IMG/VR virus record: IMGVR_UViG_3300028453_000035
Source: a virus
Taxonomy: Duplodnaviria; Heunggongvirae; Uroviricota; Caudoviricetes
DNA: 15,685 nt
Reading direction: 5' to 3' (one strand)
Position numbers: made by a program
In this document: piece by piece, positions 1 to 3,000 of the stretch
Position numbering within the stretch: the stretch's first letter is position 1
Layout: each line of letters begins with the position of its first letter

Positions 1-3000
1 AAAAATATCTATCGGATAGCGAATCAGGACCACAGAGCAGGCAACATCCATTTTGAATTAACCTGAGCAAAAAGACTTAATACCAGTATATTCCAAAAAT
101 GGCATTTTGGGAGATTACTTCTGCAAACCGCTCCCGCTAAATACATCCCTGATTTCCTGCGCAGTCTGTTCAAAACGCCCGGTATCCAGCTCAACGCCAG
201 TTGCACGACGCCCCAGCGCCATCGCGGCTTTGACTGTCGAACCCGACCCCATGAAAAAATCTGCAACCAGGTCACCCGGACGACTGCTCGCGCTGATTAT
301 CTGCTGCAGCATTTCTGCCGGTTTTTCGCACGGATGTTTCCCGGGATAGTACTGCACCGGTTTATGCGTCCACACATCCGTGTACGGCATCTGCGCCGTC
401 ACGCCAAAATACCGCCGCAGATGCTTATATTCACTCTGCAGTTCCGCATACTGCCGGTTCAGTGAAGTATACGTCTCCAGCAGCTGGTGGTGGGGCTTTT
501 CCAGTTCACCCCGCTGATGCTTCTCTTCTGCCACCCGGGCAAACAGCGCCTGTAATTTCAGATAATCACTTTCGTCCGGCAGTTGCCACTGACTGGCACT
601 GAACCAGTGCGACACCATGTTTTTCTTTCCTGTGGCATCCACAATCTGTTTTGCCGTTATCCCCAGGGCAGCGCGCGCATCACGAAAGTAAGCAATCAGC
701 GGTGCCATCACATGCTGTTTCAGTGCCCTGCCCTTCGCCTCATACCCGGCATCTTTCGGACGATACGGCCCCTGATAATGTTCCGCGAACAGAATGCGCT
801 CTGTGGCGGGGAAATACGCCCGCAGGCTTTCCTTGTTGCACCCGTTCCAGCGTCCGGACGGCTTCGCCCAGATAATATGGTTCAGCACACTGAAGCGTTC
901 ACGCATCATGATTTCAATGTCAGATGCCAGGCGATGGCCACAGAACAGGTAAAGACTTCCGGCAGGTTTCAGCACCCGCCAGAACTGCGCAAGACACTGG
1001 TCCAGCCACTTCAGGTAATCATCGTCGCCCTTCCACTGGTTATCCCAGCCCTCAGGCTTCACTTTAAAGTACGGCGGATCCGTGACTATCAGGTCAACAG
1101 AATTTTCGGGTAACGACCGGATAAATTCCAGGCAGTCGGCGTTGATTAACTCACAACTGGATATTTTTACAGTGTTAAGCATGGATCATTAAGCCTGTCT
1201 CTGATAGGCTCATTCTGCTTTTGCGCAAAGCAGTGGGCCTGAGGTTTGCTTGTGATCCAGACGCATGAGCAGATGGCTGGTGAGTGCCCCTAACACCCAC
1301 CAGCCGCCCATTTACCACAAATAAAAAAGCCTTCATGACTGAAGGCGTCTGTAACAACCGAACTGATAGTCTGCCAGACCCGCCATAACAAGCTGGGTCA
1401 GTATTAACTGGCAGCGTTCGCGTGAAAGGTAAGTATTCTGCGCAATCTCCCCGACTGTCGCCGGTTCGGTGACGCTTAATTCATTAAACACCACTCTGGC
1501 GGTTTCGGTCATATCCTGCTGTTTCAGCATGTCTTTTTCCCTTTTCAGGTTAACGTGACATACCAATAACTCTTGTCGAAAAAGCCAGCAAGCTGAAAGA
1601 CCCGTATTCGCAACCACCAGCGCGTTTAACGCCCTGTGTCGTTTTTCGGGCATAAAAAAACCCGCCAGTGGCGGGGATCTTTTGATAAAAACGACAAAGG
1701 CACCATTAAGGTGCCTTTTACACAGGGGCAGCAGGCTTGTCATCACCTTATTGCTACTCCTGGCTTCCAGTTCGGAAGTCTCACAAGTCCCATCAGGGTA
1801 CAGCGACAGTATCAGTCAACACACTATGTGTGTCAATATAAATTCATATCGAATTCGATAATCGTTTTCGATTATCGATACAGATAAGCCATCCCTATCC
1901 CGTGCAATACCGCCCGTTTAATATTCTCAAACTCATCTTCCGCAATCATAGGAACAATATAATTTCGCCCCTCCCAGGTTCTAGTTTTTATGCGATCCAG
2001 TCGGCTCAATGAAACCGTCATCAACATGTCACATTTTACCCAACAAGTAATATGCTCATTACCAGGGATGGGGTTTTCTGATAACTCATGATGGCAATCT
2101 CTGCGAGGAATCGGTTCAGTAGTGCTTATTGGTACCACTGTTACCAATTGATTGTTGTGTCTGTTTCTGGACACGACTACCACTGGCCTGACCTTGACTA
2201 TTTCCGGAACAACCATTCCCCGAAAATCACACATTAAAACAGAACGAACAGACGGCTGATACTTTAACACCATAAATCTCTTTGCCTGATAATGACGACT
2301 TGTGAACTCCACTACAAACAAAATGATTCTGCTGAACAGGCAGTTTCGCACTGTACATTATAACCTGTTAAGCCAACAAAAAAACCCGCTCGGCGGCGGG
2401 GTTTGCTTACTTTGCCATCGCGTACAAAATCGGCAAAATATCAGATTTACATGAAATATATGCTTTTTAATCCAGTTTTGCAATATTTTGCTGTGAAAAT
2501 GTGGTCTTTTGTTTTGAACGTGTTTTCGTTAAAAGCAATAAAGCTTGGCTATCAAGCTGTAGAAAAATGTGCTTCATTGCAACCCAGCGTTCAGTAAATG
2601 TCTCAGACCAGTTTTTTGATGTCACTCCCACCAGTGATGCCAGATCCCGGTATTCATAACCTTCCCCACCAAAAAGCTCAGCTTTTACCGCTTGCGCCGC
2701 CAGCCAGATCAACTTCTTCAGACGTTCCAGCGTTTTCCCAGCTATTTTTCTGGTACCGGATTGAGTATTAAATTCATTCCACGCCCACTGCGTTATCGCA
2801 ATCTGATACTCCCAGCAAATGTTTCCGCCGTAACACCACAACAACCACGCCTTCTGATGCGCTTCCAGTTCCAGAACTGCACGTCGCCATGATGATGTCG
2901 AAAACTCAACCGGACTGACCAGAGCAATTGACGTCCCTTTCGCCAGTGATTGTTTACCCGGGATCGGTGGGTTATCCCGCGTGATCATTTTTCCGGTTAC

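Follow-up and report, generated by a model that had tools for sequence, protein, structure and literature searches.

How is a MazF/PemK-type toxin restrained when no antitoxin gene can be recognised beside it? This question is raised by the IMG/VR virus record IMGVR_UViG_3300028453_000035 (Duplodnaviria; Heunggongvirae; Uroviricota; Caudoviricetes), whose 15,685 nucleotides were analysed as a whole and are called the window here. The window corresponds to the region of late regulation in a lambdoid prophage of the Shiga-toxigenic E. coli type and carries a gene for a MazF/PemK-fold protein of 133 amino acids (aa), a putative endoribonuclease toxin (2273–1872, with the ATG at 2273 and the stop codon at 1874–1872; this gene, its partner and the late genes around them lie on the minus strand, and positions are those of the window). 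MazF and PemK are textbook type II toxins, and RefSeq labels the same open reading frame (ORF) as a PemK/MazF family toxin (type II). The preliminary description of this DNA regarded the gene as stand-alone and left three alternatives: an orphan endoribonuclease, a toxin whose antitoxin is encoded elsewhere, or a toxin whose antitoxin is an RNA. The last of these is favoured by a conserved RNA gene adjacent to the toxin gene. On balance, the locus appears to be a type III-like toxin–antitoxin cassette that is carried as a moron after the terminator tR' and pairs an RNase of the MazF fold with a structured, single-copy RNA antitoxin. The cassette would comprise two genes and extend over ~2375–1690, in a variable slot just after the antiterminator gene Q, the promoter pR' and tR'. 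Open-access papers and bioRxiv preprints yielded no account of a structured RNA as the partner of a MazF/PemK toxin, publication elsewhere being possible.

The evidence that carries this reading is the linkage between the two genes. A conserved non-coding element was seen downstream of the toxin gene when seven distant loci were read side by side, and a covariance model built from 21 sequences detected it in all 82 non-redundant homologous loci (E 7e-33 to 4e-5), in 81 of them on the strand of the gene and just after its stop codon; a gene with an RNA beside it in 82 of 82 loci can no longer be called stand-alone. These loci belong to Pseudomonas, Caulobacteraceae, Neisseria, Vogesella, Oxalobacteraceae, Pasteurellaceae, Geobacter, Xenorhabdus and E. 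coli, as well as to metagenome-assembled genomes of Anaerolineales, Saccharibacteria and Cytophagales and to a 13-kb Vibrio element, and the pair is also present in non-phage chromosomal contexts (Pseudomonas, Geobacter and others). During a first run on 88 loci two gave no significant match: one of these contigs ends 107 nt after the gene and the other, from Alysiella, shows a weak RNA match (16.8 bits) upstream of the gene. Additionally, the RNA lies on the opposite strand in Alcanivorax; the inverted RNA and the weak upstream match therefore fit a separate gene rather than a 3' untranslated region (UTR). The linkage is near-obligate and one-sided. Protein and RNA occur together in 24 of 5,426 complete E. 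coli genomes (the RNA adjoining the toxin gene in 24/24), the RNA only in 13 and the protein only in none; the 41 viral contigs that match two words of the RNA divide into 26 with both and 15 with the RNA only; and the 112 of 120 metagenome loci with enough upstream sequence comprise 78 pairs (same strand in 77/78, median gap 87 nt) and 34 loci with the RNA only. The protein needs the RNA nearby, and the RNA does not need the protein.

The RNA gene of the window encodes a structured small RNA of ~110 nt (~1802–1690) that starts ~70 nt past the toxin stop codon and matches the covariance model at 1809–1692 (85 bits, E 1.5e-21), so that the small-RNA search earlier suggested for 1740–1871 found its object there. 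The RNA comprises four helices, P1 (1798–1796 with 1791–1789), P2 (1778–1774 with 1768–1764), P3 (1762–1752 with 1733–1723) and P4 (1747–1745 with 1736–1734), and two invariant single-stranded words, CUUGUGAGACU (1787–1777) and the loop GAUGACAAGC (1744–1735), which contains ACA. It ends in a terminator hairpin (1718–1696, terminator scan) followed by a conserved UUUGUC tail and is preceded by its own sigma-70 promoter (TTGACA-17-GATACT, 1836–1808), which the promoter scan found to agree with the consensus at 10/12 positions. A promoter at this fixed distance from the RNA, with at least 8/12 consensus positions, was found in 70.5% of 78 loci compared to 3.8% at random positions. The minimum-energy fold of the window RNA alone equals the consensus structure (z = -4.9). 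In the alignment fitted by the covariance model 97% of the cells at paired positions are paired, compensatory changes occur in 26/29 base pairs, and the covariation score is 0.468 as against ~0.07 with the partners slid, a value that no shuffle reaches; compensatory changes in P2 and P3 were apparent beforehand, both in the raw sequences and in a MAFFT alignment. The sequence after the terminator stem, UUUGUC(G/A)UUU (1695–1683 in the window), is near-invariant from E. coli to Caulobacter, which is unusual for a terminator tail.

A known family was considered as the identity of this RNA and rejected: Rfam 15 places no family over the RNA core, either in the whole window or in a focused scan of 1620–1880 with E up to 10, nor in seven other loci, and its matches at this locus are at the level of terminators only (for example isrK, 19.8 bits against a gathering score of 50 bits). 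ToxI-like tandem repeats are absent from 1500–2500. No terminator was called in the window between the toxin stop codon and the RNA; the perfect 10-bp inverted repeat across the stop codon (1878–1869 with 1864–1855) is not a terminator, because no T run follows it. A second intrinsic terminator (CCCGCCACTGGCGGG + T7, 1675–1654, hairpin 1675–1661, terminator scan) is probably backbone just past the cassette, judging from the window segment 1640–1676, which also matches loci without the cassette. The palindromes and two terminator hairpins formerly noticed downstream of the toxin gene are thus present (1718–1696, 1675–1661 and the 10-bp repeat), but they belong with a conserved RNA gene. Two pseudoknots, CUUGU/ACAAG and GACAAG of the loop with the 3' tail UUUGUC, are complementary and were set aside as unsupported because variation breaks the pairs instead of compensating. 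Likewise, co-variation of the loop variant GAUAACAAG versus GAUGACAAG with protein residues (e.g., residue 85, near D82) was tried; a few positions track the variant, and the signal was not used because one clade dominates it. RefSeq leaves the RNA region unannotated or overlays it with a hypothetical protein: at locus L002 (3251–3448, equivalent to ~1551–1748 of the window) and in several genomes a 65-aa hypothetical protein, WP_134790173.1, is called across the RNA and the terminators, a call that is almost certainly spurious.

The protein itself was assigned to the MazF/PemK fold in the preliminary description, and the profile search proposed there bore this out: Pfam PF02452 (PemK_toxin) is matched over residues 12–95 with 52.6 bits (E 6e-14; curated cut-off 23.1 bits). 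It also matches phrog_15698, whose function is unassigned in PHROG (E 1e-47), and more weakly a "MazF-like growth inhibitor" PHROG, whereas the NCBIfam equivalog of MazF, NF007386, gives 14.2 bits against a cut-off of 120 bits, so that the protein is not an E. coli MazF orthologue; PADLOC gives no defence-system match for it. The predicted start codon is the right one to judge from the N-terminus MVSRYVPDMGDLIWVDF, which aligns with MVLKYQPSVRSVLMCDF of MazF, and from an AGAG Shine-Dalgarno-like element ahead of it. An AlphaFold2 model built on 64 homologues (pLDDT 95.3) predicts the SH3-like barrel of the MazF/Kid/CcdB fold, and every one of the top 50 Foldseek matches in the PDB is a MazF or MoxT/YdcE protein (probability 1.00, 13–22% identity), the best of them being MazF proteins with a target-normalised TM-score of 0.64–0.83. 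Since identity to the solved MazF proteins is this low and a sequence search of the PDB reaches an E value of only ~0.03, the protein represents a remote, structurally unsolved branch, to which a profile search assigns 817 clusters (at 50% identity) with E ≤1e-10. E24, R29, S50, K80, D82 and R91 are among the residues invariant in a family alignment of 19 sequences; when 64 sequences are taken, K80 is at least 90% conserved and E24, R29, S50, D82 and R91 remain invariant, and the 10 closest relatives all share T51 and T52. By sequence alignment only, the conserved residues correspond to E24, R29 and T52 of MazF and to R73 and D75 of Kid, which we take to be catalytic-site positions. The catalytic-site residues thus appear to be kept, and RNase activity and toxicity would be expected of the protein. 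The family also shows conserved insertions relative to MazF, including an invariant RLDRIK motif.

The setting of the cassette is that of a moron. The Q gene (2467–3162; Pfam PF06323, 301 bits; RefSeq: bacteriophage antitermination protein Q) and a pR'-like sigma-70 promoter that overlaps its stop codon (TTGCAA-17-TATATT, 2483–2455, promoter scan) form the context outside the cassette, and a tR'-like intrinsic terminator (CCCGCCGCCGAGCGGG + T run, 2400–2378, hairpin 2400–2385, terminator scan) forms its upstream border. The end of Q, the promoter and the terminator are common to ~2,000 E. coli genomes at ~87% identity, and similarity to cassette-free prophages breaks off at ~2376. Since Q, promoter and terminator precede the 133-aa ORF and the shared similarity stops at that point, this ORF is the first gene past pR'/tR'; relatives have tRNA genes or lysis genes directly after the same Q and terminator, and the gene therefore occupies a variable moron slot, where it had been placed at the outset. 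It is rare, with 24 carriers among the 5,426 E. coli genomes. As expected of a lambdoid moron, the cassette is a self-contained unit between conserved phage genes that is missing from close relatives. Prophage cassettes lie directly behind three unrelated Q families, PF06323 (the window), PF03589 (Enterobacter) and PF06530 (Xenorhabdus), and at one Mu-like locus the cassette is found ~800 nt beyond the gene that follows mor, which encodes the Mu-type late regulator Mor; lysis genes are downstream of the cassette in all these prophage and Mu-like loci. From position only, it is plausible that induction brings strong late Q-dependent transcription of the toxin gene and that little read-through occurs in the lysogen.

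Taken together, one-sided linkage, MazF fold and an intact catalytic site make a toxin with an RNA antitoxin the most economical reading. A protein toxin adjoins a non-coding RNA gene, as in type III systems, a likeness that concerns the partnership only; the tandem-repeat antitoxin upstream of the toxin gene and the terminator between the two, which are characteristic of type III, were not found. The RNA would be made in excess: its strong promoter would supply copies and, since no terminator separates the two genes, each toxin transcript would carry a further copy at its 3' end; ToxIN attains such an excess of antitoxin in a different way. It would bind the toxin directly through the invariant words CUUGUGAGACU and GAUGACAAGC, which might act as pseudo-substrates that silence the RNase; direct binding is favoured because these words are invariant across phyla and the toxin leaders are not. 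Should the RNA supply drop, or Q-mediated read-through of tR' boost the toxin, free RNase would cut cellular or phage RNA, which in a lysogen might lead to abortive infection or superinfection exclusion and on induction could add to host shut-off.

Several points weigh against this reading. Toxicity, RNA cleavage and binding of this RNA are predicted properties of the protein, and the same one-sided linkage would be expected if the function lay in the RNA, with the protein as an accessory. No established type III family has this architecture: the RNA is here single-copy, repeat-free, downstream of the toxin gene and equipped with its own promoter. The RNA is missing in two of four distant members tested (~40% identity) and present in the other two, and the covariation counts derive from a model-fitted alignment, which biases them towards structure. 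Additionally, a promoter of the toxin gene in the lysogen is not established. The TATAAT hexamer in the toxin leader (2362–2357), taken at first for an element of the gene's own, is present; nevertheless its promoter role was not borne out, as it has no acceptable -35 and was not called by the promoter scan, its position is not conserved in relatives, and bare TATAAT is no commoner in the window than by chance (4 observed, 7.8 expected). It is flanked by a 10-bp inverted repeat (90%; 2373–2364 with 2340–2331) that might serve as an operator or form an RNA hairpin in read-through transcripts.

The linkage could also be read in the opposite sense, an account that we consider unlikely: the pair would be a ribonucleoprotein with a non-toxin role, in which the RNA is functional (for example as a small RNA with a regulatory role or as a decoy against defence) and the MazF-like protein is dedicated to processing, maturing or stabilising it. 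Loci with the RNA only are frequent and apparently intact, with promoter and structure kept, and on this account the RNA therefore works without the protein; they occur in several phage contexts including tail-gene regions (loci L129, L133 and L134), and no close relative was seen to have the protein alone. On the other hand, the MazF fold and the conserved MazF/Kid site residues point to a general sequence-specific RNase, and the contexts are mobile, of the moron or defence-island type (e.g., in Geobacter, with methyltransferase and helicase-nuclease-type (ResIII) neighbours). Furthermore, the protein gene has repeatedly been lost or has decayed while the RNA was kept, the classic fate of a toxin: locus L099 has the backbone of the window itself, its leader running straight into the RNA promoter; in L189 a Pseudomonas toxin leader survives as far as the start codon; and L135 keeps a decayed toxin gene beside the RNA.

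The RNA-only copies deserve description in their own right. The 13 complete E. coli genomes and several viral contigs share one prophage backbone from which the toxin coding sequence (CDS) is cleanly deleted and in which the RNA is intact; the deletion joins the leader ending in cagcagaatcat onto agagtgttgactgatact (7133–7249 in L099, 2552–2668 in L136, equivalent to 1640–1828 of the window). Viral loci L106, L109, L110 and L130 are further RNA-only copies, some of them directly behind a PF03589-type Q promoter, where the terminators of the RNA would serve as tR', and those of L129, L133 and L134 lie among tail or baseplate genes of a different phage type. RNA-only copies carried by phages may be antitoxin decoys. 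Copies right after a HigA-like antidote gene, identified from its translation only, were observed in Pseudomonas-like metagenome contigs (L152, L171, L195, L196, L211, L229 and L146, L166, L194, L210, L221, L240), in some of which the RNA appears to replace the 3' half of the HigA-like gene, suggesting a preferred insertion site. Among more distant relatives, Vibrio phage 10N.239.311.A09_PE001 (PQ189296; L003, 3371–4670) has at one end a 37%-identical homologue followed by a weak RNA match (26.6 bits), downstream of a cro-like helix-turn-helix (HTH) gene and a small LexA/S24-like gene; such Vibrio elements are ~13 kb long, come from Vibrio cyclitrophicus and are filed under Vinavirales. JGI labels homologues "YifN (PemK superfamily)", and the yifN pseudogene locus of E. 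coli K-12 (L259, 1513–1961) has no match to the RNA model.

An antisense function was considered as well, in which the RNA would act in trans on the toxin mRNA leader, in a type I-like manner, and block translation or affect stability. The toxin 5' UTR of the window contains a stretch, TCACAAG-TCGTCATTATC (2306–2288), whose complementarity extends to both of the invariant RNA words (7/7 and 10/11 with G-U pairs, a lead only), and in the Enterobacter leader an 11-nt stretch, TTGTCATCACC, is perfectly complementary to the RNA loop. However, the words are invariant across phyla and the leaders are not, those of Xenorhabdus and Pseudomonas having no complement; duplex energies of the RNA against the leader of the same locus are no better than those of shuffles in most loci (z mostly -2 to +1.6); and the RNA lies downstream on the same strand rather than antisense to the gene. 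Pairing between RNA and leader, locally striking and neither general nor beyond shuffles, was therefore rejected as a general mechanism, and a type I-like system is improbable.

The possibility that the protein is a true orphan, a late host shut-off RNase that requires no antitoxin because the cell is doomed, with the downstream element as its 3' UTR and terminator, is more doubtful still. It would agree with the place of the gene, which comes first behind tR' in prophages that differ in their Q family (three in all), and with the lack of a terminator between CDS and RNA, so that the RNA is also part of the mRNA. It does not explain why the same pair resides in non-phage chromosomes, nor why the RNA has a positionally conserved promoter of its own, can be inverted and persists after deletion of the CDS.

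As to a protein partner, the preliminary description held that none is encoded nearby, and this was confirmed: no same-strand upstream ORF is conserved across lineages in 83 homologous loci, and no neighbouring protein partner is conserved in these loci or in the called genes of nine contexts. The adjacent, co-transcribed antitoxin gene of a type II system was accordingly not found, and the homologous gene is monocistronic, with divergent or convergent neighbours, among the called genes of Enterobacter, Xenorhabdus, Pseudomonas, Geobacter and Alcanivorax. The statement that the upstream 80 nt contain no ATG-initiated frame is essentially right, except that a 43-aa ATG ORF (2358–2227) begins just outside them, within TATAATG, and overlaps the start of the 133-aa gene. 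This ORF has no family match in PHROG or PADLOC, its ATG is missing at the Enterobacter locus (79% identical), and it was rejected as an antitoxin for want of a family match and of conservation. Another candidate, a 65-aa winged-helix-like ORF (phrog_331, 1530–1333) 340 nt downstream of the 133-aa gene, was rejected because two terminators intervene; it is missing from the toxin loci of Enterobacter, Xenorhabdus and Pseudomonas and is also present in prophages with the toxin deleted. An ordinary MazEF/PemIK system of type II, whose protein antitoxin was missed or is unlinked (as for Myxococcus MazF-mx/MrpC), is thus very improbable in spite of the RefSeq label and of these two ORFs, one overlapping the gene start and one downstream, since neither is conserved, no neighbour ORF is conserved in the 83 loci and an unlinked antitoxin would leave the RNA unexplained. 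A distant clade (~40% identity, no RNA detected) may have a protein partner: at L262 (1874–2497) a 207-aa ORF with no Pfam match ends 4 nt before the PemK-like gene.

Strains 2013C-3181 and N51 are 100% identical to the window over 1300–2500. Genes for RusA (3149–3511) and a DUF968 protein (3524–4573), both from the ORF list and RefSeq, precede the cassette beyond Q, and a DNA methyltransferase gene (1182–115, Pfam scan and RefSeq) follows it. RefSeq annotates a second "antiterminator Q family protein" gene on the minus strand at 9017–9550, ~6 kb from the first, and an IS4-like transposase ORF (5057–6175) lies between both Q genes, which suggests a composite or tandem prophage. The same prophage region contains further RNA-based toxin or division-control elements, namely the sok antitoxin RNA (117 bits) adjoining hokD at 6518–6693 and the small RNA DicF (75.8 bits) at 14587–14638. 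Ten N at 14721–14730, between two copies of a similar motif, gtgttatgggtgga, look like masking or an assembly gap.

If the type III-like reading is correct, its consequences would exceed this prophage. Toxin–antitoxin systems with an RNA antitoxin are a known kind; the RNA family and the architecture are new, and the function would be as proposed above. Tentatively, and with less confidence than for the cassette itself, the locus might be the founding example of a widespread toxin–antitoxin class, a prophage-borne defence in which a MazF-fold RNase is neutralised by a substrate-mimicking single-copy RNA and which is accompanied by RNA-only decoys; such a class would be spread across Proteobacteria and beyond. 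RNA-only copies would then let phages, or toxin-less cells, escape, in an anti-defence arms race of the pseudo-ToxI kind for the MazF superfamily. A large MazF clade with an RNA instead of a protein partner would make the boundary between types II and III less distinct and would explain a set of "orphan" MazF annotations, and a new structured RNA family, currently missed or mislabelled as a hypothetical protein, would be gained for annotation. The cassette occupies the stx slot in prophages of Shiga-toxigenic E. coli and may affect phage exclusion, the outcome of induction and host RNA turnover. Additionally, the pair is small and could yield a sequence-specific RNase tool with a built-in RNA inhibitor.

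Compared with known systems, the cassette resembles type III (ToxIN, CptIN, TenpIN) most directly in that an endoribonuclease is paired with an adjacent non-coding RNA and no protein antitoxin, and type III systems likewise travel on mobile elements and have a role in abortive infection. Blower et al. are said to have found in 2011 that ToxN is structurally related to Kid/MazF, and phage phiTE reportedly carries an RNA-only mimic, pseudo-ToxI (Blower et al. in 2012), which the RNA-only phage loci observed here would parallel. It differs from type III in its RNA, which is ~110 nt long with four covarying helices, single-copy, downstream and driven by its own promoter, and in its toxin, a member of the Pfam PemK/MazF family and not of ToxN/AbiQ, CptN or TenpN. 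With MazEF, PemIK and Kid-Kis it shares the toxin fold and the aligned catalytic positions; here the toxin sequence is very distant and no MazE, PemI or Kis-type gene is present. AvcID is a non-repetitive, "type III-like" system in which a single small RNA neutralises an adjacent protein toxin in phage defence (PMC10511110); AvcD is a deoxycytidylate deaminase, and toxin and RNA are unrelated to those described here. Phage AbiF of Clostridioides difficile is presented as a system of the same type, with a single adjacent RNA as antitoxin and a role in phage defence (10.1101/2025.04.15.648962); it falls outside the MazF/PemK Pfam family and its RNA is unrelated. MazF-mx of Myxococcus xanthus is a solitary MazF homologue without an adjacent antitoxin gene (PMC2701414); it is controlled by an unlinked protein, MrpC, whereas the candidate partner in the present case is the conserved RNA next to the gene. 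Finally, the cassette shares with the lambdoid morons between Q and the lysis genes (stx, tRNA genes, DNA methylase) the site directly after pR'/tR' and the form of a self-contained cassette, with an RNA promoter and terminator of its own, and it differs from them in its cargo, a toxin–RNA pair that is also found outside phages.

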